A DNA stretch of 64,000 nucleotides, from IMG/VR virus record IMGVR_UViG_3300008261_000018, positions 21,175 through 85,174 of that record. One strand, given 5' to 3'. A program made the position numbers and the translations under genes. This document shows positions 6,984 through 64,000 of the stretch, one piece after another (positions within the stretch are counted from its first letter, which is position 1; every line of letters begins with the position of its first letter). This DNA comes from a virus. The notes beneath the pieces were generated by a model that saw only the letters and a program-made list of their open reading frames with translations, made no database searches and was not told the origin of the DNA.

Positions 6984-7232
6984 ATGGCTTCTCTCCGTCT
7001 TGGGGAGCGCGTCACGCATGCAGTTGATGGGCGCAGTGCTCTGATCATCGGCAAGGCCGAGGCCGCTGGCTGGAACCGCGCCCTGATCCTGGTCGCCATT
7101 GAAGGCAGTACACGCAATGAGTACTGGCCCTTGCGTCACGTCGTCTCGCGTCCCAAGCGAGAACAGGTGCCCGCCTTGGGTGGTCGCTTTCAACCACCCA
7201 AGGGCTTTCCCTTGATTCCTGCTGCAGCTTAA
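6984..7232 (+). CDS. hypothetical protein
   Basis: 82-aa ORF in operon context. Confidence 0.65.
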   Translation: MASLRLGERVTHAVDGRSALIIGKAEAAGWNRALILVAIEGSTRNEYWPLRHVVSRPKREQVPALGGRFQPPKGFPLIPAAA

Positions 7233-7234
7233 TC

Positions 7235-7528
7235 ATGAGCAAACCCAAAGCGCCGACGCTTCAGATCGGCGATCGCGTTCGCGAGCGCGACTCACTCAAG
7301 ATGTTCATTGCCAAGCCCACCTCTCCGGGGTTCGCGATTGCGCGCGACATCGTTAAATCCGAGCGTCGCGGTGAGATCGTCGCGATCGAGACGCGCAAGG
7401 CGGCGAACGGCAGCGCCTACACCTACGTCAGCGTTCTTTGGGACGGCGATCACCGCCCGAAAACCCATGCACGCCAGCGCATTGAGCTCGCTCCCGTTGA
7501 TTCGGCACCAGCCGATACATTGCTTTAA
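7235..7528 (+). CDS. hypothetical protein (SH3-like beta fold possible)
   Basis: LQIGDRVRER…GEIV…YVSVLWDG pattern. Confidence 0.7.
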   Translation: MSKPKAPTLQIGDRVRERDSLKMFIAKPTSPGFAIARDIVKSERRGEIVAIETRKAANGSAYTYVSVLWDGDHRPKTHARQRIELAPVDSAPADTLL

Positions 7529-7543
7529 GCATGCTTCTTTGCA

Positions 7544-8221: not shown

Positions 8222-8269
8222 CGGCAGTTTCTATGATGAACGCATCACATACGGCCTCCTTCTTGCGTC

Positions 8270-9061: not shown

Positions 9062-9144
9062 TCCTGAAGATCAGCAATTACTGAGCGACAGGGCTTGCGC
9101 TGCGTAAGAGCACTCCCTACTCTCTGCTTACCTGCCCTCGCTGT

Positions 9145-9858
9145 TTGGCTGACCTGTTTCGCGCGAGAACCGTTGCGGCTACCGAGATGCCGCAACGCGT
9201 CGCCTACCTTGCGCTGCATACCGACTACTCCGAGGATTTCGCGCCGTCCACGGATCTCAGCGAGGATCGCTGCGGTGAGATCGTTGTTGAACGCTTACTC
9301 AAAGGGAACCGCGGTCATTACGGTCCTCTAGAGCACCCCTCGCTTTCACTGCTGATCTGCGCTGATCACAACACCATTGTCCAGATGCGAACCCATCGCA
9401 TCGGCATGAGCTTTGACGTTCAGTCGATGCGCTACACCGGCGAAAGGATTATGCGCGTCGCTCGCCGGGAAGTCTCACCCGAAGAGGTCTTTTACGTCAG
9501 GCAGCCCGGCATTTACTGGGATCGGCAAGGCGATCGCTACACATGGACCGCCGATGACGCCGAAGAATCTCTTGCTATCGCACTCTCTTCCGCCATCGAT
9601 TACGCCCGACTCCGCGACAAAGGCGTCTCCGAGGAGCACGCTCGGCAGGTCCTGGTGACCTCGTACTACCAGAACGCCATGGTCACCGGCAACCTGCGCT
9701 CATGGTTGCACATGCTTGACGTTCGCCTGAAGAGCGACGCGCAGTCTGAAATCCGCCAACTGATGGACCTTATCTCAACCGAAGTCCAGCGTTGGGCACC
9801 CGAGGTTTACTCCTGGTGGGCCAGCCATCGCAAAGGCAAGGCACAGCTGGCTCCTTGA
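9145..9858 (+). CDS. thyX: flavin-dependent thymidylate synthase
   Basis: GHYGPLEH, RTHRIGMSFDVQSMRY signature, NLRSWLH.LD.R…AQ.EIR. Confidence 0.95.
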   Translation: MADLFRARTVAATEMPQRVAYLALHTDYSEDFAPSTDLSEDRCGEIVVERLLKGNRGHYGPLEHPSLSLLICADHNTIVQMRTHRIGMSFDVQSMRYTGERIMRVARREVSPEEVFYVRQPGIYWDRQGDRYTWTADDAEESLAIALSSAIDYARLRDKGVSEEHARQVLVTSYYQNAMVTGNLRSWLHMLDVRLKSDAQSEIRQLMDLISTEVQRWAPEVYSWWASHRKGKAQLAP

Positions 9859-9859
9859 T

Positions 9860-10108
9860 ATGGACTTCATGACCGGCCAGTCCCTAGCGGATTTCATCAA
9901 CAGCTTTGACGACAAGGATGACCTCCCCGAGCTGGAAGCTCATCACCTGTTCGACAAGCTCATTCAGTCTCACGGCCTACTCAGCGAAGTTGTCGACTAC
10001 CTCCAGCAGGACAACTTTGATCCCGAACTGCAGGGCATGATCAAAGCAGCTGAGCAGCTTACAGATTTCATCGTCATCACCTTTCAACAGCGCATGCCCC
10101 ATGACTAG
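9860..10108 (+). CDS. hypothetical protein
   Basis: 82-aa acidic ORF directly after thyX. Confidence 0.7.
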   Translation: MDFMTGQSLADFINSFDDKDDLPELEAHHLFDKLIQSHGLLSEVVDYLQQDNFDPELQGMIKAAEQLTDFIVITFQQRMPHD

Positions 10109-10544
10109 GCCTTCTCGTTTTGAACTGCTCAGCAAGTTCTTCCCCGAGCTCAAGCAGCCTGGAACCCAAGGAGACAAAGAGGCTTCACTGCGTTTCAACA
10201 CGCTGGCGTGTGAGGCGATCCTTGCCGATCAACTGCATCTCTTTGATATCGGGTTTCGGCACAACGGTCCAGGGCTCCTGTGCGTACGCCTCCGCGATGG
10301 CGCCCAGTGCAGTGAATACCTGCCTGTTGACGACCTGCGCGTCGATCAGGCGGAAGCCAAGCGGACTGGTGACAGCGATGTCGAGCAGTTCCTCGCTGAT
10401 GCCATCTCCCAGATCGGCTCCACCAACTTTGAGAAGTGCGGGCTTGTCCTGCTCATCGATAACAGCTCGATGCAAGTCTTCCCGATTGATCGCGACTATC
10501 CGGCCCGGGCAATCCAGGCCATGCTCGAAGAATTTGCAGCTTGA
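10101..10544 (+). CDS. hypothetical protein
   Basis: 147-aa ORF overlapping the upstream stop. Confidence 0.75.
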   Translation: MTRPSRFELLSKFFPELKQPGTQGDKEASLRFNTLACEAILADQLHLFDIGFRHNGPGLLCVRLRDGAQCSEYLPVDDLRVDQAEAKRTGDSDVEQFLADAISQIGSTNFEKCGLVLLIDNSSMQVFPIDRDYPARAIQAMLEEFAA

Positions 10545-10547
10545 CCG

Positions 10548-11168
10548 ATGGGTGAACAACACAGGGCCCGCCTTGCTCCGCCCCAGGACTTCGTGCTTGC
10601 AGCACGCTCGGTCATGGGCGCCATCGACTTCGATGCCTTCGCGAATTCCGATATCAACAGGCTCGTTCAAGCCAGTCGCTTTCACGACCGTGACAAAGAC
10701 GACCTCGAGCTTCTCCTCGCTCAGCCATGGGATCTGCCAGGAGACAAGCGCGTGCTTGTCGCCCCTCCCATGAGCGCCGTGCTCTCCAGGCGCTTGATCA
10801 ATAAGACTCTGCGCGAGTACCGGGCCGGTCGAGTCAATCAGGCCATGCTTTGGATCTCGCATAACGAGACCATCATCAAAGCTCCATGGCTGTGGGACTT
10901 CCCCGCCTGTATGCCATTTCGCCGCTTGCGCCCCTGCTGGTGGGATGACGAACTGGAAGTCTTCCGCAACGTCGCGCTTTCGGACTGGTCTGCTGTTTTC
11001 TACTTGCCGCCGCCCGATCCCGTCGCCGAATTCCAGAACCGCGTCTCTCGCTTTCACACCGTCTTCAGCGCACTGGGCCGCGTCGTCTTCAACGAGATGA
11101 GCGGCGAAGGTGACTGGGAGAAGTCCTACCAGGCGCTGCAGAAGAAGCCCTACAACTACCGTGAGTAA
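10548..11168 (+). CDS. phage N6-adenine methyltransferase-like protein, degenerate
   Basis: ARSVMGAIDFDAFA (cf. IDLDPAS), VLVAPPM (cf. NPPY), K.L.EY.AG.V.QA. Confidence 0.6.
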   Translation: MGEQHRARLAPPQDFVLAARSVMGAIDFDAFANSDINRLVQASRFHDRDKDDLELLLAQPWDLPGDKRVLVAPPMSAVLSRRLINKTLREYRAGRVNQAMLWISHNETIIKAPWLWDFPACMPFRRLRPCWWDDELEVFRNVALSDWSAVFYLPPPDPVAEFQNRVSRFHTVFSALGRVVFNEMSGEGDWEKSYQALQKKPYNYRE

Positions 11169-11595
11169 GTTTCACGTACCCGGCTCTGAGTGCGCGGCAG
11201 ACGAGTTCCAGGCTCCTGATGGGGCCTGGTTCAGCATCTTCCGCGCCATTGTCTTCGACTCATGGCTGATTTGGCGCGACGCCTTGCCATCTGAGCCGGA
11301 GCTGCGCGAGCAACTCGACGGCTCAGCCTATGAATGCGTCACGGCTCTGGCTAAGCAGCTCCATCTGTTCCACCAGTCATTGCCTTGCTACCGGGGCTTG
11401 ACGATCTCACCCTTCCACGTCTCGCGTTGGTGGGACCCAACCGATACCGATCAAGCGTGGAATTCAGGAGGCTCGGTCCTGTTTTACATGGATGACTACA
11501 GCGCTGCAGACCTGTTGCGCCTCTGCGTTAAACGACCAGGGCTCAAGCTCCGGGCCGTATCGCAACGCTACGTCGAAGCATCCTTAGTGGAGTGA
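11161..11595 (+). CDS. hypothetical protein
   Basis: GTG start overlapping the upstream stop. Confidence 0.65.
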   Translation: MSKFHVPGSECAADEFQAPDGAWFSIFRAIVFDSWLIWRDALPSEPELREQLDGSAYECVTALAKQLHLFHQSLPCYRGLTISPFHVSRWWDPTDTDQAWNSGGSVLFYMDDYSAADLLRLCVKRPGLKLRAVSQRYVEASLVE

Positions 11596-11613
11596 CTACC
11601 CAGTATTGGGTAC

Positions 11614-11901
11614 TCACTCCGGCAAGACCCTGGCTTCGCTGAAAGCTTTGCGGGCACCCAACGCGCCGCTGCCGAAGTCCTTGAACACCTGACGTGCCTG
11701 GGCAATGGACTGCGCGCGCTCCTGCATCACCTCCAGGCCGCGCCCGTTGTCGATACTCCGCAAGCCGCCCGTGCTGCCGCCATAGGCATTGGCCGTGTGG
11801 GCCTGGCTTCTGGCCCTGGCCTGTAGTCGCTTAGCTGTCGCATCACGCTGGGCTTGCCCGCCTAACGAGAAACCTTGAGCTTCTTTGTATCGGCGGTCCA
11901 T
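11614..11901 (-). CDS. hypothetical protein
   Basis: 95-aa ORF filling the gap on the - strand. Confidence 0.55.
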   Translation of the reverse strand: MDRRYKEAQGFSLGGQAQRDATAKRLQARARSQAHTANAYGGSTGGLRSIDNGRGLEVMQERAQSIAQARQVFKDFGSGALGARKAFSEARVLPE

Positions 11902-11976
11902 GGCTGCGCCCTATCGTTCAGACCGCTTGCCACAGCATGGTCCTGTTCTTATCCTACTTCCAATAACAAAGGCGCC

Positions 11977-12408
11977 ATGAAGCCCAAGACGCGGTTCGAC
12001 CTCGTGCCATTCGCCGCGCTCGAGGAGATTGCCGATGTCCTGACCTACGGCGCCGATAAGTATTCCGCCAATAACTGGTGCCGTGGTACGCCCTGGAGCC
12101 GCTATTTCTCGGCGCTCTGCAGGCATATCTTCGCCTGGTGGCGCGGCGAGAATACGGACCCCGAGACCGGGCTCTCGCATCTAGCTCATGCCGGCTGCTG
12201 CTTGATCTTCCTCATGGAATACCAGCGCAATCGCTGGGGGGAAGATGACCGTTTTGTCAGCCCCGACGGCCAGGAATTCATGAAGCACGACGGACGCACA
12301 GACCCGCAAACCATTCGCTCGACCTGCTGGGTTGACGCATCTGGCACGCGGACCTGCCGCGACGTCTCAGTCAGGGACCTTGATCACGATGAAGACGGAT
12401 GCGAGTGA
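11977..12408 (+). CDS. dATP/dGTP diphosphohydrolase-like protein (DUF5664 family)
   Basis: KTRFDLVP..ALEEIA.VLTYGA.KY..NNW.RG…RH..AW..GE..DPETGLSHLAHA. Confidence 0.85.
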   Translation: MKPKTRFDLVPFAALEEIADVLTYGADKYSANNWCRGTPWSRYFSALCRHIFAWWRGENTDPETGLSHLAHAGCCLIFLMEYQRNRWGEDDRFVSPDGQEFMKHDGRTDPQTIRSTCWVDASGTRTCRDVSVRDLDHDEDGCE

Positions 12409-15291: not shown

Positions 15292-16542
15292 TTAGCGCAA
15301 CGTGATCTCCAGGCTCTCCAGTCCTCCGGGCCAGACAAGTTCGCTGACGAATTGCAGGATCACCGCCCGCAGTTCCTCGTCCGTCGCAAGTTCAAGCGTC
15401 CGCCGGTCTGCAAACAGCTCGACCAGAAGCTCATAGCGAGCTGAGCTATCCACTTGCTGCAGCGCCTGCAGCTGACGATGCAGCGCCGCCAACTTGTCCT
15501 CCAATCCATCGACTCCAGCAGCCTGCGCTGCCTGCAGCGCTGAGATCTGATTGCGAATTGGTCCTGCTTCCGCTGGCTCCTTCTTTTCGCTGATAGCTGC
15601 GCTGGCGAGCTCCGCTGCCTTGGTGGTCAACGCATCAATCACCTTCCTGCGCACAACCTCGACACGGATGCCCTGGCCGTAGCGAGCGCAAATGCGGTTG
15701 TGGCATTTCAGGCGAGGGACCGCCCGATCGCGGATGTTGTGCAGGGACTTGCCGCAGCTCTCGCAGCGCACCAGCCCGGTAAACAGATGCACGGTGTGAG
15801 CAGCTCTACCCCGCATGTTTGATCGGGCCTTGAGCTTGTTTTCGGCTTCCGCCCATTCCTGCCAGCTGATCAACGGCTTGGTCCCGCCGTGCTCACCGCG
15901 CACAATGCCGCGCAGCATCGGATTGGCAATCCAGCTTTTGACGCCCTTCGGGGTCCACTTCGATTGCGTCTTAGCAATCCAGCCAGAGACGTTGAAGTCG
16001 AGCTCCATCAGCTCGTCCCACATCTGGCGCGCGGCATCCCAGTGATCCGGGCATGGCACGACGTACTGCCCGTCGTAGCTGTACCCAAAGGGAACCTTGC
16101 CGCAGGCGTAGTACCCCTGGGCCTTGCGTCGCCTCAGGCCGTCTCTGACCTTGGCCGCCGTGAGCCGGCTCTGCATCTGCGAGAACACGCTCATCATCCC
16201 GGCCTGCACGAAGCCGCCGATCGACTCGGTTTCAATGGTGCCGCCGACCAGGGCCACCACCTTGGTGCCGCGAGCGGCGCAGAGCTCGAGGAATGCCATG
16301 TCATCACCCGAGCGGCTCAGGCGAGACTGATCGGCCACGAGGATCTCGTCGACGCCGCCCCGGCCAACCAGCGACCAGAGCTCATCCCAGCCCGGGCGTG
16401 CGTTGCCCTTGAAGGCTGACCTCCGCTCGGCAATGACCCGCTCACAGCCAGCGCGCTTGAGCTCGACGACTTGGCCCTCGATCGACTTGTCCTGCTCCTC
16501 TTGGGCCGTCGAGGTGCGGGCGTATCCGATTCTCACGACCAT
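15292..16542 (-). CDS. int: large serine recombinase (integrase)
   Basis: GYARTST catalytic Ser, DQSRLSR, GKVPFGY, PLISWQEW, Zn ribbon CESCG…C…C, coiled coil. Confidence 0.92.
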   Translation of the reverse strand: MVVRIGYARTSTAQEEQDKSIEGQVVELKRAGCERVIAERRSAFKGNARPGWDELWSLVGRGGVDEILVADQSRLSRSGDDMAFLELCAARGTKVVALVGGTIETESIGGFVQAGMMSVFSQMQSRLTAAKVRDGLRRRKAQGYYACGKVPFGYSYDGQYVVPCPDHWDAARQMWDELMELDFNVSGWIAKTQSKWTPKGVKSWIANPMLRGIVRGEHGGTKPLISWQEWAEAENKLKARSNMRGRAAHTVHLFTGLVRCESCGKSLHNIRDRAVPRLKCHNRICARYGQGIRVEVVRRKVIDALTTKAAELASAAISEKKEPAEAGPIRNQISALQAAQAAGVDGLEDKLAALHRQLQALQQVDSSARYELLVELFADRRTLELATDEELRAVILQFVSELVWPGGLESLEITLR

Positions 16543-16586
16543 GGTTGACACACGCGCTGCAGGGGGCACACTTGCGCAGACCTCCT

Positions 16587-54770: not shown

Positions 54771-55362
54771 ATTGACCTCCGATGATCTGCCTCGGCTGAC
54801 CGGAGCCCAGGGCCATGCCGCCAGTGCCGAGAGCGCCCGAGGTTAATAGCGCTGCAAGGGCCAGATTCATATCCTCTTCGCTGTCTTGATCTTCCGCCTC
54901 GGACCGCTTGCCACCCTGCTGTTGACTGACGTATTCGTCTAGTTGTGAGTTGTAGAACGCACGCGGCACAAAAAACTGGAGGGGCAAAGCAGCCACGTCT
55001 CCGATATTCATGCCCATGTCGGTCATTTCCCTGAGGTACTGCTCTTTGCTCACTCCTTCCGGGAGGGGTTTGGCGTCAAGGTTGTTCAACCGTCGCGTAG
55101 CCATATTGCGCGCGACACCTCGACCTGCCAAGTTCCCGAGCAGTGATAGGCCGACGCTTGTTGCCAACTCCTCGCCGGCTGCCAACGCCCTGGCTCCCCC
55201 TTCCGTCCCGTCAGGCAGGCTCGAAGCAACCAATCCCGCTCCCAACAGCTCCGGGCCAAAGCGCAGCGCAAGCGATGCGTAGTCCTTGCCGGTCTGTGCC
55301 GGGAAAATATCCTTCAGCGCTCGTGTCAGCGCGGGGATGCCTGCAGCTAAACGGAGTCCCAT
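54760..55362 (-). CDS. hypothetical protein
   Basis: 200 aa; overlaps the next start. Confidence 0.75.
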   Translation of the reverse strand: MGLRLAAGIPALTRALKDIFPAQTGKDYASLALRFGPELLGAGLVASSLPDGTEGGARALAAGEELATSVGLSLLGNLAGRGVARNMATRRLNNLDAKPLPEGVSKEQYLREMTDMGMNIGDVAALPLQFFVPRAFYNSQLDEYVSQQQGGKRSEAEDQDSEEDMNLALAALLTSGALGTGGMALGSGQPRQIIGGQYVS

Positions 55363-55364
55363 TG

Positions 55365-55655
55365 TTATACGTAACCGGCGTCAGGACCGTAGGGGCCGTT
55401 TGCGAAGTACTGAGCCCATTGTCCGACCGCAGCCTGACCATCCGGCTCTTGAATCATTGAGCCAAATTGGCCATTCATACCGAGGCTCCCAGCGATCAGA
55501 TCACCAGCGAACCGCCCTGACGGCCGCTTCACGGGACTACCAGCTTCAAAGCCCAGGCCGCCGGCGATATTCTCTTCTTGATCCTGCTTACTGCGGATCG
55601 CTAGATCGAAAATTCGACCCTGCGTATCAGCATCCTCTGGGATCCTATAAGCCAC
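55365..55655 (-). CDS. hypothetical protein
   Basis: GTG start 23 nt after TAGGAT. Confidence 0.7.
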   Translation of the reverse strand: MAYRIPEDADTQGRIFDLAIRSKQDQEENIAGGLGFEAGSPVKRPSGRFAGDLIAGSLGMNGQFGSMIQEPDGQAAVGQWAQYFANGPYGPDAGYV

Positions 55656-55720
55656 GCCAGCCGCTATAGGTTTTCAACATCCTAGCGATGACGCAGCTTT
55701 CTATTCCTCGCAATCAATGA

Positions 55721-56122
55721 TTAACGGGTGGGATCGTATCCAGGGGTCGGTGCCGGCACAGGCGAAGGTGCAGGCGTTGAAGTCCCCGTCTGCGGCTTGC
55801 TTGCGCCAGAGGTCAACATTGGCTTGCGAGGGCGAGGCTTAGTTTCCGGCCCGGGGCCGCGACCAGGGCGCGGACGGCTCGCCATTTCGTTTGTTTTGGC
55901 TGCTGCCTTGGCGGCATTCTTTTGCTTGGCTTTTTCCTTGCCGGCTCGTACGACCGATTTCTTGCGAGCTTCGGTCTCCTGCTTCTTTTGGTTGCTCTGT
56001 TCGCCGCTCACACTCACGCGACCACCACCGCCCGACTTTGGCGCGCTAGGTGCAGCCTTGCCCTTTCGATACGCGGCGACCTTGGCGACAGCGCTCTTGG
56101 CCTGCTTACTAGCTCTCTTCAT
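55721..56122 (-). CDS. Lys/Ala/Pro-rich basic (histone-like) protein
   Basis: Strongly basic, low-complexity composition. Confidence 0.7.
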   Translation of the reverse strand: MKRASKQAKSAVAKVAAYRKGKAAPSAPKSGGGGRVSVSGEQSNQKKQETEARKKSVVRAGKEKAKQKNAAKAAAKTNEMASRPRPGRGPGPETKPRPRKPMLTSGASKPQTGTSTPAPSPVPAPTPGYDPTR

Positions 56123-56142
56123 TGTTGTATGAGGTTGGCCGC

Positions 56143-56382
56143 CTACTTGGCGATGACGTTCTTGTAAAAGTTCGCCTTCTTAACCATCTTAGAGCTGTAT
56201 TCAGCCTTGTTCCCAAGCACCTGCTCGGCGAATGCTTTACGCCCCTCTGGTGTATCTGCGTGCCCTGCTTTGGTCGCAGCAGCCGTGAACGTGCCGCCGG
56301 TTCCGCCCTTGCTTGCCGGCTTGCTCATCTTCTTGAAGGCCTGGGTCAAACCCTTGGCCTTCTCGCGTTTTTCTTGGCTCAT
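56143..56382 (-). CDS. small basic conserved phage protein
   Basis: GTFTAAA.KAG…FA..VL.N…KKANF..N. Confidence 0.8.
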   Translation of the reverse strand: MSQEKREKAKGLTQAFKKMSKPASKGGTGGTFTAAATKAGHADTPEGRKAFAEQVLGNKAEYSSKMVKKANFYKNVIAK

Positions 56383-59255
56383 CGGCCCATGACGCCCAGT
56401 AAGCGGCGCCGTGTCATTGCCGCACCTTTGTTAATCGGCTCTGACGGGTATTGGCCAGGTGCAACAGCATTCAGGTTGGAGTCCGGCGCTGCTTTGCTGC
56501 GCTGAGCGATCCTGTTGGCCAACAGTGCCATCGCCCGCTCTTGCGACTCACTGCCCACCTCGCTGCCAAGGGCGTTTGCCATGTCGTTGAACGTAGCGCC
56601 AGCAGGGATTCCGGGCACGGGAGCGGTGCCCTCCGGCGACGGCCGGTATGCCATGCGCAAACGATCAGCTGCTACTGGATCAACGCCGCGAGTTCCAACC
56701 TGTACGACATCCATGGCCGGCGCCGCGTACGCGTCAATCTGAGGCAGGAGGTCCAAATTGCTTGCGCGGCGTGGCACGTACATCGCGCGCATCGGGTCAC
56801 CGCTGGCCTCGTCGGCCAGGACGCGCTGAACGATGAATGCGGCTTGGTCACGATCACCGCCGGTGTAGCGCGTGGCGTACTCCACGTATGACTCCATGGG
56901 GTCCGCGGGTCGCTCCGGCTCCGCCAGAACCTGCTGATAGCCGCTGCGCTTGCGAAGGGTTTCAGCGCGATCCAGGTGGTCCTGGAATTCCGTCTCGTCC
57001 ATGCCGCTGGACTGCAGCATCTCGATTAGCTGAGAGGCTTCGTCGGCGTCAAACGTCCGTGGCGCGTCTTCCACTAGGCCTGCGGTGGCTGGTTCTGGGA
57101 ACAGATCCACGCGACGACCACCACTGATCTCCCGCTTCGCCTGCTCAAGCATCTCTGCGGCGTAGCTGCCGGGGGCAAACAGCGGCCTGCCGGGGTCATT
57201 GGCTGGAACAGTCCGCGTAATCGTCCGGCCGCTCTCTCCAGGCAGCGGGATTTCCACCGTGGTCATCTCAGCAGCGGCGCGCAGCGTTGTATTGGCGTCC
57301 ACCTGGAAGCGCGCACCAAACTGCGCGGCTGCATCAAGCGCTTCAGCAGGGGTCAGCGGGCGCGGCGCCTCCTGCAAGAAGGCCCGCAACTGCTTGCCAG
57401 CCGCAACCGCGCGGCTATCAGGCGCGTTGAGGTCGCCACTGCGGCGAGGATTGATGTTCGAGTACAGGCTCTCGACAGTTCCCCGCATGGGGGTCTGCAC
57501 GCCGTACACCTCGGAGCCCTTGGCGACGGGCATTTCCCCGGAAAGCGCTGCTTCGGCGAGGATGTCGCGCAGGGCATTGCGATTTTCGGGCGGAATCTCC
57601 GCCGACAGGTTGCCTAATGCGCGGAAAAACTCTGTCTGGTCTACCTCTCCGTACTTTTTCTCCATTGTTCGCCGAATTCCGGCGTCATCGACCAGAGGAG
57701 CAAGCGTGATATCGCCGCGAACCCCCTTGCGCCGCCGCGAACTCACACCTTCAGAGGCTGTGCGCGCGAATTCACGCGCTTCTGCGTAGTCGCGGTTGAC
57801 CGGAGAGCCCACACGGAAGAGCTTGTCGGTCTCATTGATGACGCCATCGAGCACGTTTCCAGGCTCTGGGACCTGGCGCGTCCCTGACAGCACCTCCGTG
57901 TCGTACACCGGCAGCACTTCTTCGCCGTACTTCACCCCGTCCTTGGTGCGCCGCACGGTCGATTTGGTCAAATATCCAATCAATGAGTCCTTAGATCCTG
58001 TTGCCGCTGCTGCAACCTGACGGGCCGTGTACTCAGCCTTCGATAGTCGCCTGAATCGACCTTCTTGCTCTGCCTGCAGCAGAGCATTACGGCCGATGAC
58101 CGGCGTTTTGTTCTCTTCGTTGATGCGATTGATGACCTCTTTCAGGCGAATTTCTTTCTCTCGCATGAACGAGGCTGTTTTGTCCTCGTCAACGTCGCCC
58201 TCCCGCTCGTATCCAGCAGGCACTCCGACCAGCTGGTTGGGGTCAATGGTCCCAATTGCCCTTTCCCCACCTTTAAGCCACTGACCATCCGGCTGCCGCT
58301 GCGATGCTTCGATCACATAGGGAGGCGAGCCAGCGCCACCTGCGTCTTCGATATAGGTTTTTGCGCCTCGTTTCCTGAAATCTGGCTGCTTCTGGATCGT
58401 CTGAAGGTTCTTGCCAGAACGCTTGGCCTCAAACTCCTCGGGATCCTCTGCTGAATAGCCGGTGACGTCTACATTCCGCCCGGATTCGTCGCGGTCGTAA
58501 CCCTCGACGCGGAGCATGTCCGCCAATTCCACGGCGTAGTCATCCAGGAACGCGCGCTCCTCTTCGCTAGTGCTAGCCCGGCGCATCATCTGCACCGTCA
58601 TGAATGCTTGCTCGCTCTCGCTCAAGGGTTTTTTCGCGCCTTTACTGGCGAGCATCTGCTCGACGCGCTCAGGGGTATCAAGCGCAGCGAAAGAATTGCC
58701 CTCTCTGACCATTGCATCGCGACGCGCAAGCCGCGAATCAGGCCGATACGCCGACCCACTGCGTCGTCCTCTGACACGCGGATCATGTTCCAGGTAGTAG
58801 TTGTCACTCGCAACAGTTCCAGTTGGGAGCTGTTCAAACCCTTGGCGCTGGACTTGAGCTTCGTATGTACCGCTGGCGGGCATCCGCTCGTTGCGCCCAA
58901 CCTCGTACAAGTTGCCGTCTTTGCCTACGTAGGTATCCGGGGCGTCTGCAAGACGAACATTGAGTGAGAGCTGTCCTGAGGGAGAGCCGCTCACTGAGCG
59001 TCCATCGACAAGCATTTCGCTGCTTGGCGGCAGGTTGCGAGCGAGATCGCGTAACACCTGATCGCGCGCTTCAGGCGACGCGGCGGCTTGGCGCGCGAAG
59101 TACCGCTGCACGCGCTCGAGGTCGCCCTGAATACCCGGAACAACAGGAGGCAAGCCAGGGATATTCAGCTGGCTAGGGACTGCGCCCAGACTCCGGCGGG
59201 GGTCATAAGGGTCTTCCCAGCGGAAACTGCCAATTCCGCCAATCCCGAGCGCCAT
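56379..59255 (-). CDS. large hypothetical protein (958 aa), first gene of the late operon
   Basis: Long uninterrupted ORF; no motif recognised. Confidence 0.85.
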   Translation of the reverse strand: MALGIGGIGSFRWEDPYDPRRSLGAVPSQLNIPGLPPVVPGIQGDLERVQRYFARQAAASPEARDQVLRDLARNLPPSSEMLVDGRSVSGSPSGQLSLNVRLADAPDTYVGKDGNLYEVGRNERMPASGTYEAQVQRQGFEQLPTGTVASDNYYLEHDPRVRGRRSGSAYRPDSRLARRDAMVREGNSFAALDTPERVEQMLASKGAKKPLSESEQAFMTVQMMRRASTSEEERAFLDDYAVELADMLRVEGYDRDESGRNVDVTGYSAEDPEEFEAKRSGKNLQTIQKQPDFRKRGAKTYIEDAGGAGSPPYVIEASQRQPDGQWLKGGERAIGTIDPNQLVGVPAGYEREGDVDEDKTASFMREKEIRLKEVINRINEENKTPVIGRNALLQAEQEGRFRRLSKAEYTARQVAAAATGSKDSLIGYLTKSTVRRTKDGVKYGEEVLPVYDTEVLSGTRQVPEPGNVLDGVINETDKLFRVGSPVNRDYAEAREFARTASEGVSSRRRKGVRGDITLAPLVDDAGIRRTMEKKYGEVDQTEFFRALGNLSAEIPPENRNALRDILAEAALSGEMPVAKGSEVYGVQTPMRGTVESLYSNINPRRSGDLNAPDSRAVAAGKQLRAFLQEAPRPLTPAEALDAAAQFGARFQVDANTTLRAAAEMTTVEIPLPGESGRTITRTVPANDPGRPLFAPGSYAAEMLEQAKREISGGRRVDLFPEPATAGLVEDAPRTFDADEASQLIEMLQSSGMDETEFQDHLDRAETLRKRSGYQQVLAEPERPADPMESYVEYATRYTGGDRDQAAFIVQRVLADEASGDPMRAMYVPRRASNLDLLPQIDAYAAPAMDVVQVGTRGVDPVAADRLRMAYRPSPEGTAPVPGIPAGATFNDMANALGSEVGSESQERAMALLANRIAQRSKAAPDSNLNAVAPGQYPSEPINKGAAMTRRRLLGVMGR

Positions 59256-60150
59256 TGAACGCCACGCCGCGCACTGTGTACGACGAGTCTAAAGAATCTC
59301 ACTTTTTGACCCTGCGCCTCGCGTGGATAAACGCGTCGCGATTTTTCAGGAAATTATTGCTCAGCTCTATTTATTTCTGGGCCTAAAAACACCCTCCTCC
59401 GTAGGGCGAAAAAATTGGCCCATTTCGCCATGGGAAAAATCGTTTCACCCTACAGAGCGCGCCTCGCGGGACCCCTGTTGATTTTTGCTGCGGCGCGCGG
59501 TTTACATCAAACACCCCCCGCAAGTTGCGGGAGTCGCCCAACAAAAAAAAGACTGCGCCACGCCCCTGCTTCGTTCGCGGCCAACGCTGTAGCCCCGCGC
59601 CCGCGTGCGCGCTACGCGCGCTTATCGCGTTCGCTGCGTTGCGTTTGTAGCGAGAGAAGCCTGCTTCGTTTGTGAGCAAGCGAGCGAGCGAGCGTTACTT
59701 GTGGATAGCAGATGAGCAGCAGCTGAGCGCACGGAAGCTGCGTGAGCAACAGATGTATACAAGTGCGCGCACACACGAGAGCAGGCGACGCGTTCACGCG
59801 TTGCGTCAGCGTTTCCACACGCAACCACCAGTACCCCGCGCACGCGCTCGGGCGCAATCCGCGCTCCACCGCACCCCCGCGCCTTCGCGACTAGGGGGGC
59901 CTCATCCACTGCGGGTGGGTGTTTTTCTCCCTATGGGAATCATTCTCAACGGTGAATCTCTTGTGCGCTACGCGCACTGATTCGCTGTTCTCTTCGCCCA
60001 TGCGCTCGCTGCGCTCGCTTTGTGCTCCATCTCTCCACGCCTCAATACCCCGGAGCCACCCTCGCCATCCATTCCATTTGTCTCAGCTGAGTCTCATCGC
60101 GTCACGGGACACGACGCCCCGCCGCGCGCGCCGCGATCAGGGGCTCTGCT
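59256..60150. other. non-coding strand-switch region; candidate genome end/packaging site
   Basis: No credible ORF; A/T tracts followed by CGCG/GCGA-rich low-complexity sequence; genes diverge on both sides. Confidence 0.5.
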
Positions 60151-60175
60151 TGTGTCCCTCCGCAGCAGTGCATTC

Positions 60176-60373
60176 ATGCTTGCTCAACTCCGCTCGCTCA
60201 TCCCCGTCACCACCACCGAGGAATACGACTACCTCGAGTGGCTCTACATCGAAGCCACCCGGCTAGGCGATCACCTCGATCTCGCTGCCGAGCTCTTCAG
60301 CTACAGGCAGGGCATCCTCGAGCACGCGATCAATTGCCAAGAGACCTACGACTCTGGCGAGTGCCCCTTCTGA
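60176..60373 (+). CDS. cassette 1: hypothetical protein (65 aa)
   Basis: MLAQLRSLIP…GECPF*; lies between repeats. Confidence 0.75.
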   Translation: MLAQLRSLIPVTTTEEYDYLEWLYIEATRLGDHLDLAAELFSYRQGILEHAINCQETYDSGECPF

Positions 60374-60454
60374 CACCATCCCCCGCTTGGCTCAGCCAGG
60401 TGGGGGATTTTTCGTGTCCCTCACCAGCAGTGCATTTCACGCTGCTTGACTCCG

Positions 60455-60652
60455 ATGACCATCACCCTCAACCACAACTGGATCGACGGCGCCGCAGCTT
60501 GCGCGCTCCGCAGATCCATCGAGGTCTACACCTGGCACGGCATCGAGGGCGACTTCGACTACGACCACGAGGTGATCAACCCCGAGGAATACGAGGCCGC
60601 CAATCTCCTGCTCCGCTCCACTCACCTCCCCGAGAGCGATTGCCCCTTCTGA
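60455..60652 (+). CDS. cassette 2: hypothetical protein (65 aa)
   Basis: MTITLNHNW…SDCPF*. Confidence 0.75.
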   Translation: MTITLNHNWIDGAAACALRRSIEVYTWHGIEGDFDYDHEVINPEEYEAANLLLRSTHLPESDCPF

Positions 60653-60717
60653 CACCATCCCCCGCTTGGCTCAGCCAGGTGGGGGATTTTTCGTGTCCCA
60701 ATACAGCAGTGCATTCA

Positions 60718-60903
60718 ATGTCCTTCACGACGCTGATCACTCCCTCCGGCAAATACGAGTACATCGCCAACGGCGACCAAACTCGCATCACCTTCTGGGC
60801 GCTGCGCGGCAACAAGCGCGAGTGGAGCAGATCCACCTCCGTCCCGACCGAGCTCGCTCGTCGGGACTACGAGTCCCGCAAGCAACGCGCGATCTTCGCC
60901 TGA
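60718..60903 (+). CDS. cassette 3: hypothetical protein (61 aa)
   Basis: MSFTTLITPSGKYEY…AIFA*. Confidence 0.75.
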   Translation: MSFTTLITPSGKYEYIANGDQTRITFWALRGNKREWSRSTSVPTELARRDYESRKQRAIFA

Positions 60904-60980
60904 CACCAAGCCCCTGCTCCCTCCGGGAGTGGGGGCTTTTCTATGTCCTTCCTCAGCGGTGCATCTGCACTGCTTTAGCC

Positions 60981-61283
60981 ATGGCACGCGCCATCCTCTT
61001 CGAGGCCAGGTCTATCGAGCAGGCCCTTGAAGCTGCGCACCTTACCGCCGGCGAAGCCTGGTTCTGCGTCAGCGAAGGCGTCCTCTGGATGCACTTCTGC
61101 CTTGACCGCAGCGACCTGGCGAGCTGGCAGGAGGAGACCGGCCTGGGGGAGTGCACCGATGTGCACGACCCCGAGGTCTCCTTCGATGCCGAGAACCCCG
61201 GCAACTGGTGCTCTCTCAGCTACGCCGCCCTCGGCGATCACAACGGCCTGGTCGACCTGCGCTACATCGTCCAAACCACCTGA
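60981..61283 (+). CDS. cassette 4: hypothetical protein (100 aa)
   Basis: MARAILFEARS…YIVQTT*. Confidence 0.75.
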   Translation: MARAILFEARSIEQALEAAHLTAGEAWFCVSEGVLWMHFCLDRSDLASWQEETGLGECTDVHDPEVSFDAENPGNWCSLSYAALGDHNGLVDLRYIVQTT

Positions 61284-61363
61284 CACCGAACCCCCGCTTG
61301 GCTCAGCCAGGTGGGGGTTCTTTCGTGTCCCTCATCAGCAGTGCATTGACGCTGCTTCCTTCG

Positions 61364-61552
61364 ATGCGCGCTCCCATCCTCGCGATCGCTGCCGGCACCG
61401 CCATCGGTTTCACCCTGGTCGGTGCCATGCACGCCGCTGTCGCTCGCCTCGATCAGGCCACCCGCCAGCAGTGCATCCGCCAGGACTGGCCTGTTCACCA
61501 GCACACCGCCCACACCGAGTTCTGCCGGACCTACATGGTCAAGGCCTTCTGA
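61364..61552 (+). CDS. cassette 5: small membrane-anchored protein (62 aa)
   Basis: N-terminal hydrophobic helix, then QC..QDWP.HQH.AH..FC. Confidence 0.75.
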   Translation: MRAPILAIAAGTAIGFTLVGAMHAAVARLDQATRQQCIRQDWPVHQHTAHTEFCRTYMVKAF

Positions 61553-61635
61553 TCCCACTGATCCCCTCATCGGCCCGGCCGGTGGGGGGATTTTTCATGT
61601 CCTCTCTCAGCAGTGCATTCGCGCTGCTTCCTTCG

Positions 61636-61956
61636 ATGGATATCCGCGTCCTTAGCAAGCGCACGCTCAGCGATCCGCTGCCAGGCATTTATAGGGCCTA
61701 CGTCGGTCGGCCGAGCGCTCTCGGGAATCCATTCCCGATGCGCTCTGAGTCCGATCGCGACGACGTCTGCGAGCGCTATCTCGCCTGGCTGCGCGACAAC
61801 TACAGCGCTGGCGGCCCTGCTCGCGCTGAGCTCGAACGGCTCTACGCGATTGCCCTTGAGCAGCCGCTAGAGCTTGTCTGCTTTTGCGCCCCCAAGCGCT
61901 GCCACGCCGACAGCATCAAGCAAGCCCTGCTGGGCATGCATGCTCAACGAGCCTGA
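61636..61956 (+). CDS. cassette 6: DUF4326 domain protein
   Basis: YVGRPS.LGNPF…R..V..Y..WL…L.CFCAPKRCHAD. Confidence 0.88.
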   Translation: MDIRVLSKRTLSDPLPGIYRAYVGRPSALGNPFPMRSESDRDDVCERYLAWLRDNYSAGGPARAELERLYAIALEQPLELVCFCAPKRCHADSIKQALLGMHAQRA

Positions 61957-62031
61957 TCCCCTCACTCGCTTGCCGGGTGGGGGGATTTTTCATGTCCTCT
62001 CTCAGCAGTGCATTTGCGCTGCCTCACTCCG

Positions 62032-62205
62032 GTGACACACTCCGAGCTCTTCGTTGGTATCGAGCCCTCCGATCCAACAGACCCCAACTCGGCTCCGCTC
62101 GCTCGGATCTACGGCTCCAAGGCCGAGGCCGAGCACCACACCCCCTTCGTTCAAACCTTCGCTGACTTCATGGCCAGCGACGACGACACGACCCTGGTCT
62201 TCTGA
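62032..62205 (+). CDS. cassette 7: hypothetical protein (57 aa)
   Basis: GTG start; lies between repeats. Confidence 0.65.
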   Translation: MTHSELFVGIEPSDPTDPNSAPLARIYGSKAEAEHHTPFVQTFADFMASDDDTTLVF

Positions 62206-62286
62206 CCAAGATCCCCTGCCTGGCTCAGCCGGGTGGGGGATTTTTCGTGTCCCTTCTCATCAGTGCCTTTGGCGCTGACTGCTTCG

Positions 62287-62436
62287 ATGGCCCCTCACGA
62301 AATGACCACCGAGGAACTCCACCTCCTCGCCTGGGAACGCGCCGCTGCCTGCCAGCGCAGAGCCGCAGCTGGGCAGGACGACTCCGACGAATTCGAGGAG
62401 CTCCTGCCTTTGCTCAACGAGCTCTGCTGCCGCTGA
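62287..62436 (+). CDS. cassette 8: hypothetical protein (49 aa)
   Basis: MAPHEMTTEELHLLAW…. Confidence 0.7.
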   Translation: MAPHEMTTEELHLLAWERAAACQRRAAAGQDDSDEFEELLPLLNELCCR

Positions 62437-62537
62437 CCCAAGTACTCCCCTCATCGGCACCGCCGGTGGGGGGATTTTTCGTGCACTCACTCAGCAGTGC
62501 ATTGTTCTTTCTCTCCGGGGACGCCCGGATTTCCGCT

Positions 62538-62801
62538 ATGTCGGAAGGACAACTCTCGAGACTGCTTCGTCGCGTCAAGCTCCTCGCTCGCCGTGACGTC
62601 ATCCTCGATCAAACCGGCCACATGATCGGTGGCGCACTGGATCCCTTCTGGCAATTGCTAGAGATCCAGCTCGACACCATCCACGATCAATTCCTGGACG
62701 GTTACGCACCTATCGGCATCGGCCAATTCCTCGCCTACTGCGAGCAGCTGGTTAACGCTGATTGGCACCTCGTTCGAGACCTCGAACGGCAATACGCCTG
62801 A
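62538..62801 (+). CDS. cassette 9: hypothetical protein (87 aa)
   Basis: MSEGQLSRLLRR…RQYA*. Confidence 0.7.
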   Translation: MSEGQLSRLLRRVKLLARRDVILDQTGHMIGGALDPFWQLLEIQLDTIHDQFLDGYAPIGIGQFLAYCEQLVNADWHLVRDLERQYA

Positions 62802-62912
62802 GCCAAGGTTCAGCACCTCATCCCCTCATCCGCTTGCCGGGTGGGGGGATTTTTCGTGCACTCACTCAGCAGTGCATTTACCTTTCTCCCGGTCGCAAGA
62901 CCGGCTGCATCC

Positions 62913-63425
62913 ATGGCTACCGCCATCACCAAGACCGATCTGGAAGCTCGCATCGCCGAGCTCGAGGCCATCCTCGCCACCAGCTCTGCAGCCAATCCGA
63001 ACCAGGTCGTCCTGGTTGGCATGCTCAGAGCTGTCAAGCCGATCGAGTCCAAGAACCCGGAGGCCAAGTTCCAGGTCACCGCGATCCTCACCAACAACGC
63101 TCGTGAGCTGATCAATGGCCAGGAGACCCGGGTCGATCTCCCCGTCGATGGCCTCATCGCCAGCGACAACGGCAATGGCCCACTGGCTACCCAGCTGCTG
63201 GACATTGCTCGCAGCACCCGCTGGGCACGCGTCCGCGTGACCGGCTTCTGGGTCCGCCGGGGCGAGATCGAAATCCGCAACAACTACCTCAACGCCACCG
63301 GCAAGCAGCTGCGCCTCCAGTCCATCTCGGTCCTCAACTCTGAGCCCGCCGATCAGCCCGCGCTCGATGCCCCCATCGCTGCGCCTTTCGCTGACGGCCC
63401 CACCGGCGAAGAGCCCAGCTTCTGA
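62913..63425 (+). CDS. cassette 10: putative single-stranded DNA-binding protein
   Basis: NQVVLVGML…VRVTGF beta pattern, Pro/Ala linker, acidic-aromatic tail GEEPSF. Confidence 0.6.
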   Translation: MATAITKTDLEARIAELEAILATSSAANPNQVVLVGMLRAVKPIESKNPEAKFQVTAILTNNARELINGQETRVDLPVDGLIASDNGNGPLATQLLDIARSTRWARVRVTGFWVRRGEIEIRNNYLNATGKQLRLQSISVLNSEPADQPALDAPIAAPFADGPTGEEPSF

Positions 63426-63446
63426 TCCGTAGCCACCGGGCTACAC

Positions 63447-63480
63447 CGCCCCACTCGGTCCGCCGGGTGGGGCTTTTTTA
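63447..63480 (+). terminator. terminator related to the repeat hairpin but lacking the downstream motif
   Basis: CCCACTCGG-tccg-CCGGGTGGG followed by GCTTTTTT. Confidence 0.75.
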
Positions 63481-63498
63481 TTGACTCGCCAACACAGC

Positions 63499-63836
63499 AT
63501 GCGTCCTGTCTCTTCCATCACACGACGCCTTGGCGAGTACGACCTATCTTTCGCCCATCGCGCCTGCGCTCCACGGATTATCGCCGCCTGGCGCTGTCCG
63601 CCTGGAGCGCTTTTGTCACCGCCTGCGTTTATGTCTTCATCGCAGGCCAACTGACAAGGCGCGCTTACAACTTCCTTGCCCCACACCTCCTCACATTCCT
63701 GCGCGCAGCTGCACTCACCATCGAATCCACTCTCCCCACTGAGGCTGCTCCAACCACTCCTCCAGTACTTCGACATCCACCTCAGCAAACCAAGCCTCAA
63801 TCCACGCGCCGGCGCAAAGCGACCGCGCAATCCTGA
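63499..63836 (+). pseudogene. probable frameshifted membrane protein gene
   Basis: The ATG frame (MRPVSSITRR…) reads poorly after ~20 codons, while another frame encodes RLRSTDYRRLALSAWSAFVTACVYVFIAG…RRRKATAQS* with no start codon. Confidence 0.4.
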
Positions 63837-63935
63837 ATCTCAAGACCTGAAACGACATCGCCCCTGCCAGCACCGCTGGTGGGGGTTTTTTCGTGCACTC
63901 CTTCAGCAGTGCATTTGTCGTTTCTGGTCAATCGC

Positions 63936-64000
63936 ATGACTGAAATCAAAGACGTCCTCGGTGAGCTCTACCCCGAGATCGCCGACTTCCTGGCCGAGCA
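63936..64000 (+). CDS. next cassette ORF, 5' end only
   Basis: MTEIKDVLGELYPEIADFLAE… runs off the window edge. Confidence 0.7.
   Translation, partial: MTEIKDVLGELYPEIADFLAE

Follow-up and report, generated by a model that had tools for sequence, protein, structure and literature searches.

A candidate PeSL-like cassette array in an S-EIVl-related cyanophage

At the head of the rightward arm of an 85-kb contig, from a phage related to Synechococcus phage S-EIVl, lies an array in which small, unrelated ORFs alternate with 11 joints on the + strand, and related phages differ by whole cassettes whose boundaries fall inside such joints. We propose, with a probability of about 0.6, that the cassettes make up a PeSL-like terminator/promoter array within an early region that is hyperplastic. 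Among the analogs named in a preliminary description of this DNA, we judge the PeSLs to be the right one.

Joints and cassettes

The window, i.e., the whole 64,000-nt stretch analyzed, forms the end of the contig. S-EIVl was the only match in the "phages" collection (51% identity for a portal-like protein using tblastn), and no DNA-level match was found in that collection. The source is best described as a virus of freshwater cyanobacteria, namely an S-EIVl-related picocyanophage and not a T4-type myovirus. As the preliminary description had it, the array begins after a non-coding strand switch, with joint 1 at 60151, and runs past the window; the window and the contig stop at the same nucleotide, and as the two ends of the contig share a 114-nt overlap, the array carries on at the contig start. 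The leftward 958-aa ORF adjoining the array is the longest ORF in the window and encodes an orphan protein with a pLDDT of 47.9, no PDB sequence match, and an Asp-x-Asp-x-Asp stretch that is not conserved. Within the strand-switch region, a 72-nt block (59482 to 59552) is conserved in distant relatives, and a scan of both strands identified no sigma-70-like site. Replication genes also lie on the rightward arm, and a 563-aa PcfJ-like gene comes after c11. The features are as follows:

59256 to 60150, unstranded: non-coding strand-switch region, 895 nt, separating the array from the leftward 958-aa gene
60151 to 60174, + strand: joint 1, box only (TGTGTCC-N5-CAGCAGTGCATT), no T-run terminator upstream
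60176 to 60373, + strand: c1, 65 aa; ATG 1 nt past the box; unrelated ORF in its place in two close relatives
60378 to 60436, + strand: joint 2; predicted terminator 60378 to 60408, T-run, box 60413 to 60436; class I hairpin extends to 60447
60455 to 60652, + strand: c2, 65 aa
60657 to 60715, + strand: joint 3; predicted terminator 60657 to 60687, T-run, box 60692 to 60715; no second hairpin
60718 to 60903, + strand: c3, 61 aa; ATG 2 nt past the box
60908 to 60965, + strand: joint 4; predicted terminator 60908 to 60938; variant box CAGCGGTGCATC with matching changes in the hairpin partner
60981 to 61283, + strand: c4, 100 aa
61288 to 61347, + strand: joint 5; predicted terminator 61288 to 61320, box 61324 to 61347
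61364 to 61552, + strand: c5, 62 aa; hydrophobic N-terminus; in most relatives
61560 to 61619, + strand: joint 6; predicted terminator 61560 to 61592, box 61596 to 61619
61636 to 61956, + strand: c6, 106 aa, DUF4326; missing in L045 and L007; different neighborhood in L043 and L252
61955 to 62014, + strand: joint 7; predicted terminator 61955 to 61987, box 61991 to 62014
62032 to 62205, + strand: c7, 57 aa, GTG start
62208 to 62269, + strand: joint 8; predicted terminator; variant box CATCAGTGCCTT; hairpin kept despite changes on both sides
62287 to 62436, + strand: c8, 49 aa
62446 to 62503, + strand: joint 9, class III; predicted terminator 62446 to 62474, box 62480 to 62503
62538 to 62801, + strand: c9, 87 aa; missing in L045
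62820 to 62878, + strand: joint 10, class III; predicted terminator 62820 to 62850, box 62855 to 62878
62913 to 63425, + strand: c10, 170 aa; in every array whose locus reaches that far
63448 to 63473, + strand: orphan predicted terminator, no canonical box after it
63860 to 63915, + strand: joint 11, class III; predicted terminator 63860 to 63886, box 63892 to 63915
63936 to 64000, + strand: start of c11; crosses the contig end; 54 aa in the circular reading

Allowing up to 2 mismatches, CAGCAGTGCATT had 23 matches in the window compared with 7.18 ± 2.31 in shuffles, and 0 of 100 shuffles reached 23. The nine exact matches, all on the + strand between 60163 and 63915, and two joint copies with 2 mismatches each (60954, CAGCGGTGCATC; 62258, CATCAGTGCCTT) make up the 11 joints, the same number of motif copies as counted previously; another copy with 1 mismatch at 61466 lies within c5, lacks the upstream context, and was not counted as a joint. 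The box comprises 24 nt of the form TG-N-CC-N5-CAGCAGTGCAT. The earlier observation of a constant spacing was reproduced in that YRTG starts exactly 12 nt before the motif in 11 of 11 copies, with TCC next in 8 of them and CAC in 3.

Ten joints consist of a predicted intrinsic terminator, a T-run, and the box, while joint 1 has only the box; this matches the GC hairpin and T-tract described earlier for ten copies. Using a consensus scan of 59000 to 64000, we found 25 terminator-like sites versus 3.2 ± 1.6 in shuffles. Ten + strand hairpins in that scan have 11 to 15 pairs, nine of them in joints and one being the orphan at 63448 to 63473; the hairpin before copy 8 was missed by the scan, yet it is a member of the repeat families D1 and D4. 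Between two ORFs, the joint spans ~100 nt and comprises the stop codon, the terminator, the box 2 to 3 nt later, a short pyrimidine-rich leader without a Shine-Dalgarno sequence, and the start codon. Neighboring joints are most alike, and repeat family D3 extends into the 3' ends of c1 and c2 (80 nt, 94% identical).

The first 10 units contain one + strand ORF each, of 49 to 170 aa, and all ten ORFs end in TGA. That these ORFs are unrelated, as had been claimed, is borne out by their separation into ten families at a blastp E value of 1e-5. Nine of the ten had no Pfam or PHROG family, the remaining one being the DUF4326 protein. The reported lack of Shine-Dalgarno sequences stands for the array, with an SD-like tetramer before 0 of 10 ORFs, but it is not special to the array, as only 7 of 31 other genes have such a tetramer (start coordinates being approximate).

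Conservation of the box and its second hairpin

Of all 12-mers in the non-coding DNA of the genome, only that of the box is over-represented, and every copy of the box is just upstream of a + strand ORF. Three further boxes in the contig each head a larger operon. In four complete genomes, the box occurs 14/0 (13 unique), 11/0, 7/0, and 0/8 times on the two strands, i.e., on a single strand in each, while a reversed control pattern had 0 matches. The 11-mer is invariant or nearly so in 47 distinct instances, which were picked with the pattern itself so that this conservation is partly by construction, and the cassette proteins of these relatives are 26 to 50% identical to ours. Relatives with different terminator and leader sequences around the 11-mer retain it as well. 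Among 301 cyanobacterial genomes, 18 match the box with at most 2 matches per genome; a scan of genome contigs gave no box arrays among the first 120 matches listed, and the cellular genomes searched were not enriched for the box. We regard the box as phage specific and not as a host element.

A second hairpin usually takes in part of the box, and its pairing partner differs between copies. Class I hairpins show 89.4% pairing and, at 2 of their 8 pairs, double changes, a result that 0 of 500 shuffles reached. In classes II to IV, the upstream half of the box is in the stem, and there are flanking stems; in joint 9 (class III), AGTGCAT of the box pairs with GTGCACT upstream of it. C/T-rich tracts come after class II hairpins, and the + strand has recurrent G-T pairs. 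The stem placement in classes II to IV together with these G-T pairs hints at RNA-level structure, which a start downstream of the box would not transcribe. The z-scores of the hairpins are modest (≤−2 in 4 of 14 copies), and 2 of 14 copies have no hairpin. In two cassettes, c8 and the extra cassette of L043, the hairpin is kept while the box decays.

Exchange of cassettes at the joints

Close relatives with a backbone nucleotide identity of 96 to 98% differ by whole cassettes, and the blastn alignments break inside the joints. At two deletions, the alignments overlap by 65 to 75 nt, and the interval 63426 to 63859 is an insertion site in relatives, with insertions of 334, 61, and 1134 nt. The 35 related arrays comprise 29 ORF families and differ in the presence, replacement, and order of cassettes. 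Family 7 precedes family 19 in some arrays and follows it in others, and the order 5, 6, 7, 8, 9 here corresponds to 5, 8, 6, 19, 9 in L252. Amino acid identities are mosaic: compared with our array, L007 has 65% identity in family 2 and 100% in families 3, 4, 7, and 8, whereas in L252, family 6 is 100% identical and families 5, 9, and 10 are 81 to 83% identical. Judged from these alignments, the joints are the places where cassettes are gained, lost, replaced, and reordered. This supports the role in gene gain, loss, and shuffling that had been suggested for the repeat; the opposite case, in which relatives would share ORF order and content without exchange at the repeats, is at odds with the 35 differing arrays and with breakpoints within joints. 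Homologous recombination is the probable mechanism.

Function of the box and comparison with known systems

In the explanation that we propose, the array would be a row of single-gene transcription units. The terminator would end the upstream message, and the box would be this clade's own early/middle start signal, either as a promoter core or as the site of a polymerase-bringing factor. Being near-identical direct repeats, the joints would allow homologous recombination to delete, insert, replace, or reorder whole ORFs, with each unit staying expressible. The preliminary description had the repeat supply both expression signals. For the terminator half, the hairpins fit the intrinsic-terminator pattern and probably act as terminators; for the promoter half, it is position that suggests a probable promoter. 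The first box follows directly on the strand switch, and the gene preceding the box at contig position 10209, a ferritin-like one with Pfam support, lies on the opposite strand, so that a new + strand transcript must start there. With c1 and c3 starting 1 to 2 nt past the box, leaderless messages or a start site within the box would be needed. The array genes are probably expressed early.

The earlier verdict that the box is neither a sigma-70 promoter nor an attC site agrees with our data: it is not attC-like, and scanning and inspection of 59000 to 64000 gave 0 sigma-70-like sites and no box register that fits a −35/−10 pair. In a sigma-54 (−24/−12) promoter, a GG doublet is one helical turn away from a GC doublet. 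The box has such spacing between the G of its upstream TG and the GC of CAGC, but the first doublet is TG in 47 of 47 instances, and cyanobacteria are not known to possess sigma-54. N4-type promoters are short hairpins with a 3-nt loop at a fixed distance to the start and are used by a giant virion RNA polymerase; the box hairpins have loops of 4 to 8 nt or longer and vary in position, no ORF in the window exceeds 958 aa, and the window proteins scanned gave no match to a polymerase family. A T7-type promoter would call for a single-subunit RNA polymerase encoded by the phage; a Pfam scan of 60 ORFs detected no RNA polymerase or sigma factor, the 958-aa protein beside the array being an orphan. 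More tentatively, the box might be the promoter of a cyanophage transcription mode not yet described, a two-part signal with −24/−12-like spacing read by an unrecognized phage-encoded or virion-delivered factor and not by a host sigma-70-type holoenzyme alone, with the partner-swapping hairpin tuning its activity; we think this rather doubtful.

The second hairpin raises the alternative that box and hairpin act in RNA. Transcripts would start upstream, from a few unrecognized promoters or by read-through, and the 11-mer would be a leader element, serving either for processing or for the binding of a phage or host protein that acts on RNA in antitermination, stability, or the control of translation. 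The covariation and partner changes of a hairpin that always involves the box, the tolerated + strand G-T pairs, the C/T-rich tracts after class II hairpins, the decay of the box but not of the hairpin in c8 and the L043 cassette, and the lack of sigma-70-like elements in 59000 to 64000 are consistent with such a role, which we nevertheless consider unlikely, if worth serious attention. The canonical terminator and T-run before each box should mostly stop upstream transcripts there, and two copies stand where no + strand transcript can come from upstream. Moreover, the box keeps a fixed distance to the upstream TG but a variable one, of 1 to ~35 nt, to the start codon, the hairpin is absent from 2 of 14 copies, and PeSLs have similarly variable hairpin placement around proven promoters. 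If the box were instead an operator for a phage regulator, e.g., an early repressor or activator, over a weak unrecognized host-type promoter, it would not itself be the polymerase recognition element. In favor of an operator are an 11-mer far more tightly conserved than ordinary promoters, a GTG-type hexamer that recurs 16 nt upstream of GTGCAT within the box, and small DNA-binding proteins in the early arm (RHH at 2690 to 2971 of L001; HTH at 1995 to 2765 of the window). However, the box is not a palindrome, the position table of the 47 instances has no −10-like element at a fixed distance from it, and a 648-nt segment missing from L043 takes in part of the RHH gene while the boxes are kept there; we consider an operator improbable.

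Integron arrays likewise consist of tandem single-ORF cassettes with hairpin-forming repeats between them and a content that varies among relatives, and the genome encodes a serine recombinase (window 15292 to 16569), as would fit joints that are sites for a recombinase recognizing folded hairpins. We give this integron-like platform very little credence. The serine recombinase gene is 44 kb from the array, absent from one of three complete relatives having the array, and its product is only 37% identical in another, while Pfam scanning of 60 ORFs, a part of those in the contig, identified no tyrosine recombinase and thus no IntI beside the array. An attC core and a common Pc promoter are also absent; each unit carries a terminator of its own, in contrast to the promoterless cassettes of integrons, and the 65- to 75-nt overlaps at the deletion junctions are what homologous exchange predicts. 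Similarly remote is a selfish or neutral intergenic repeat that is spread and homogenized by gene conversion and has no role in expression: the likeness of neighboring joints and the repeat in the 3' ends of c1 and c2 agree with it, but the strictly single orientation, the fixed position from stop to start codon, and the retention of the 11-mer amid differing flanks do not.

Lambdoid-phage morons are genes with their own promoter and terminator inserted between neighboring genes. The cassettes resemble them as self-contained promoter-gene-terminator units with accessory genes; however, morons are scattered single insertions with unrelated signals, whereas here at least 10 tandem units share one repeated joint. 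The PeSL-like reading draws on PeSLs and PmSLs of T4-type phages, which are small composite terminator/promoter repeats before ORFans in a hyperplastic region, with indels and replacements between close relatives that have junctions at the repeats (Arbiol et al. 2010, PMC2839356; Comeau et al. 2014, PMC4122927). As here, the position of the stem-loop relative to the start signal varies by copy, Arbiol et al. (2010, PMC2839356) giving five different positions relative to a promoter of tested activity. For PeSLs, promoter and terminator activity in reporter assays and mini-circles between neighboring repeats are reported. The array departs from PeSLs in that its start-side element does not resemble a sigma-70 promoter, the box has a separate canonical terminator ahead of it and a second hairpin overlapping it, Shine-Dalgarno sequences are lacking, and the source is a cyanophage related to S-EIVl rather than a T4-type myovirus.

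If the two-part promoter were real, the array would be at once a novel transcription system of phages and a natural platform for plugging in early genes. The PeSL-like reading would extend to an unrelated, poorly known freshwater cyanophage lineage the principle that repeated regulatory joints double as recombination sites, such that accessory genes are swapped ready to express, and the 35 natural arrays display their gain, loss, replacement, and reordering. A tightly conserved, phage-specific 11-mer offers a handle on early transcription start in phages whose host uses few Shine-Dalgarno sites, and the ~29 cassette families constitute a defined pool of candidate host-takeover or counter-defense genes.

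The phage genome and its repeated joints

The contig, a single sequence of 85,174 nt of which the window comprises bases 21175-85174, is a tailed-phage genome. Its ends share a 114-nt overlap and the IMG/VR class of the record is direct terminal repeats; thus, the end of the window is the end of the contig, and the array resumes at the contig start.

Genes of the phage genome (window positions unless marked as contig coordinates)
Contig-encoded: large terminase (Pfam/PHROGs scans)
Contig-encoded: VapE-type primase-helicase (Pfam/PHROGs scans)
Contig-encoded: SSB
738-aa virion protein (phrog_20475, E 3e-188)
6404-12408: nucleotide-metabolism cluster with dCMP deaminase, ThyX and a protein carrying the dATP/dGTP diphosphohydrolase N-terminal domain
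15292-16569, - strand: serine recombinase
L001 (the whole contig) 9601-10140, contig coordinates, - strand: ferritin-like gene, inside the rightward arm

Synechococcus phage S-EIVl was the sole match in the 'phages' collection, with 51% identity over the portal-like protein. DNA-level searches of this collection gave no match to the contig, and the S-EIVl genome, when checked for repeats, contained no comparable repeated motif. The S-EIVl record likewise annotates a ferritin-like DNA-binding protein. We infer a picocyanobacterial host for the phage, with which a DUF3288 protein encoded by the contig agrees.

The preliminary description reported small ORFs that each follow the same terminator and motif, and this motif array is real: CAGCAGTGCATT occurs nine times exactly in the window, always on the + strand (60163-63915), and two variant copies have the same context. 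With up to two mismatches allowed, the window contains 23 motif matches compared to 7.18 ± 2.31 in shuffled sequences. The fixed spacing was also confirmed, YRTG beginning 12 nt upstream of the motif in 11 of 11 copies, as was the GC hairpin with T-run, which precedes 10 of the 11. Terminator-like sites in 59000-64000 number 25 compared to 3.2 ± 1.6 expected, and the predicted terminator half of the joint (stop codon, terminator, T-run, 24-nt box and short leader) strongly matches the pattern of intrinsic terminators. A twelfth motif copy with one mismatch (61466-61477) lies inside the fifth cassette ORF, where it has neither the upstream TG context nor a terminator.

In 47 distinct instances, drawn from this contig and related ones, joint positions -23 to -20 hold a conserved G-run that forms the 3' arm of the terminator, positions -18 to -13 are T-rich, positions -10 and -9 are T and G, positions -7 and -6 are C and C, and the 11-mer CAGCAGTGCAT occupies +1 to +11, with position 12 free. 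Because the pattern used to gather these instances required TG and the motif, the invariance of both is partly by construction; an unbiased search for the motif recovered the same context around the copies. In most array copies, the leader, which ends in YCG before the start codon, is also part of the repeat, and therefore the entire stop-to-start interval is repeated.

Genome wide, the box is the sole over-represented 12-mer with the exception of glycine-repeat coding DNA. There are 14 unique copies, i.e., 13 with TG-N8-CAGCNGTGCAT (the end duplicate removed) and one CATCAG variant, and three of these lie outside the array (contig 4025, 10209 and 14751), each heading a larger + strand operon. 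In four complete genomes, the box counts on the two strands were 14/0, 11/0, 7/0 and 0/8, while a reversed control pattern gave 0. The copy at 10209 stands after the ferritin-like gene of the opposite strand and the first array copy stands after the strand switch; consequently, a rightward transcript must begin at each of these two copies. When a covariance model built on class I joints (see below) was run against 91 kb, it returned the known copies only (9 matches at E of 1 or less), with no additional degenerate copies. Box matches were present in 18 of 301 cyanobacterial genomes, with at most two per genome, and most of them resemble one conserved coding stretch. A scan of genome_contigs revealed no arrays among the at least 120 matches listed (119 single matches and one adjacent pair). 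As far as seen, the box thus appears not to be a host feature. Among the papers listed in a literature search, the 11-mer occurred only as primers or in unrelated strings.

Cassette ORFs and their exchange among related phages

As described initially, there is a single ORF of 49-170 aa in each unit, with a predicted start codon and a TGA at its end. These ORFs are unrelated, ten of them falling into ten separate blastp families. A Shine-Dalgarno sequence is indeed missing before the array ORFs; however, this characterizes the genome as a whole and is not specific to the array. Only the sixth ORF (c6) matched a known family, DUF4326 (Pfam, PHROGs). Even at a divergence down to 26-60% identity, cassette families retain open frames and conserved residues; the cassette ORFs are therefore real genes. 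Families 5 (61364-61552) and 19 (in L006, L038, L253 and other loci), which are among the most widespread, encode small proteins that are rich in glycine, very hydrophobic and apparently inserted in the membrane.

We recruited IMG/VR contigs with the same arrays using the box pattern and the 958-aa protein encoded by the leftward gene next to the array. Scanning metagenomes for pairs of 11-mers spaced as in the cassettes, we obtained 106 stretches. Two or more boxes in TG context were present in 28 of them, and 25 of these 28, with a GC content of at least 0.56, were used. Many of the other 78 loci (within L166-L271; GC 0.34-0.65), mostly with a lower GC content, have a pair of 11-mers 250-280 nt apart without the TG and T-run context, and these are presumably unrelated tandem repeats. 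Clustering by blastp (E 1e-4, at least 50% coverage) resulted in 29 ORF families across 35 arrays. Three metagenome loci (L230, L237 and L244) are identical to IMG/VR loci in contig size and cassette string and are probably duplicates of these records; therefore, at most 32 of the 35 arrays are independent.

In blastn comparisons, alignments to two close relatives (nt identity 96-98%) break at joints only. In the first cassette, the replaced segment runs from where the box ends to the stop codon, L043 has an additional cassette between c5 and c6, and L045 lacks c6 and c9, with 65-75 nt of the joint doubly aligned at each junction. Across the arrays, families 5, 9 and 10 are widespread and the remaining families are variably present. 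The order varies as well: family 7 precedes family 19 in L253, L219, L181 and L229, whereas 19 precedes 7 in L038, L247 and L043, and the order 5,6,7,8,9 in this genome compares to 5,8,6,19,9 in L252. Cassettes also differ in their degree of divergence within an array. Between L007 and this genome, family 2 shares 65% identity, while families 3, 4, 7 and 8 are 100% identical; between L252 and this genome, the DUF4326 cassette is 100% identical and families 5, 9 and 10 share 81-83%. The proposal that genes are gained, lost and shuffled at the repeats had been open to refutation by relatives with the same order and content and no exchange; instead, content and order differ across the 35 arrays, and exchange takes place at the joints. 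Because the junctions overlap, we infer that exchange would occur by homologous recombination between joints. In complete relatives with the array, the serine recombinase is 99% identical in one, 37% identical in another and absent from one of three, which speaks against a dedicated site-specific system.

The region 3' of the tenth cassette (63426-63859) contains an orphan terminator (63448-63473) followed by an ATTGAC-type upstream element and no canonical box. In relatives, it has insertions of 334, 61 and 1134 nt, which carry extra ORFs.

Candidate functions of the box

The statement that the box is not a sigma-70 promoter is borne out: no sigma-70-like site was found in 59000-64000, and no register of the box yields a -10 element. 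When every register was inspected, none accommodated a sigma-70 -35/-10 pair, an extended -10 element or a start site within the T-run. The G of the upstream TG and the GC of CAGC meet the spacing of a -24/-12 promoter; we rejected this sigma-54 reading, as the doublet is TG and not GG. Sigma-54 is not known from cyanobacteria. NtcA- or CRP-like palindromes were dismissed by eye.

Pfam scans of 60 ORFs detected neither a polymerase nor a sigma factor nor a tyrosine recombinase, and PHROGs scans of 20 ORFs detected no phage polymerase or sigma factor. The 958-aa protein (56379-59255, - strand) shows conservation across the clade and has 19 homologues, all unnamed, with identities of 32-99%. It had no Pfam or PHROGs family and no usable Atlas match, searching PDB sequences with a profile of it gave 0 matches, and its AlphaFold model is of low confidence (mean pLDDT 47.9). 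An Asp-rich stretch was discarded as a lead, not being conserved. In the strand-switch region, five relatives that are otherwise diverged share a 72-nt block (59482-59552) at 79-86% identity. This block holds a - strand terminator-like hairpin (59533-59515) adjoining an A/T run and may represent a regulatory RNA or the control region of the leftward operon.

A second hairpin is found at the box: in 12 of the 14 copies, the box takes part in a stem of 7 bp or more. The z-scores of this hairpin are -0.76 to -3.02, with four copies at or below -2. Copies 1 and 3 lack the hairpin, and in both, ATG directly follows the box. The pairing partner varies from copy to copy.

Classes of the second hairpin
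Class I: AGCAGTGC pairs with downstream GCGCTGCT
Class II (operons after the array): the flanks pair with each other, leaving the box in the loop; complementarity is preserved in at least five different stem sequences
Class III: upstream GTGCACT pairs with AGTGCAT
Class IV (contig 10209 and 14751): an upstream block pairs with a box bearing the matching A-to-G change

The class I set (31 sequences, 8 pairs) has 89.4% paired cells, compared to 6.9-50.8% with the partner slid. Both sides changed at two pairs, and 0 of 500 shuffles reached the observed covariation score; variation is limited in this class because the 5' arm is the conserved box. In c8 and the extra cassette of L043, the hairpin is kept despite two to four box mismatches. 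A search of 55000-64000 against Rfam gave no family at gathering score and four sub-threshold matches, three of which were to NsiR1 and lay on terminators.

We favor the reading that the box is a start signal, to which we assign a probability of roughly 0.6 based on its position, strand bias and conservation as well as the two obligatory transcript starts; the joints would then be modules of a terminator and a start signal of the same kind as the promoter-early stem-loop (PeSL) elements of T4-type phages. The main rival, that box and hairpin act in RNA, is in our judgment rather unlikely. The covarying, G-T-tolerant stems, which include the upstream half of the box, speak for action in RNA, but a canonical terminator lies ahead of the boxes and the distance from box to start codon is variable. 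Moreover, the PeSL study places the stem-loop at five different positions around promoters with tested activity (PMC2839356), and this published variation weakens the argument from the hairpin for action at the RNA level.

Relation to PeSL cassettes

The analogy to PeSL drawn in the preliminary description is apt, as PeSL/PmSL of T4-type phages are the closest known system (PMC2839356; PMC4122927). As in that system, the repeat is composite, sits before ORFans and is the place of exchange. Unlike PeSL/PmSL, the array has no sigma-70-type promoter and the phage does not have a T4-type genome. Because these two features are not shared, we consider that the array works like PeSL without classifying it as PeSL. 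Among the papers found on PeSL with promoter, stem-loop and phage, T4-type phages were the only ones represented. Particular to this array are the cyanophage lineage, the 11-mer, which is invariant partly by construction and for which no polymerase or sigma factor was detected among the ORFs scanned, and the hairpin that switches its pairing partner. Together with its relatives, the array documents with unusual clarity how cassettes are gained, lost, replaced and reordered in nature.
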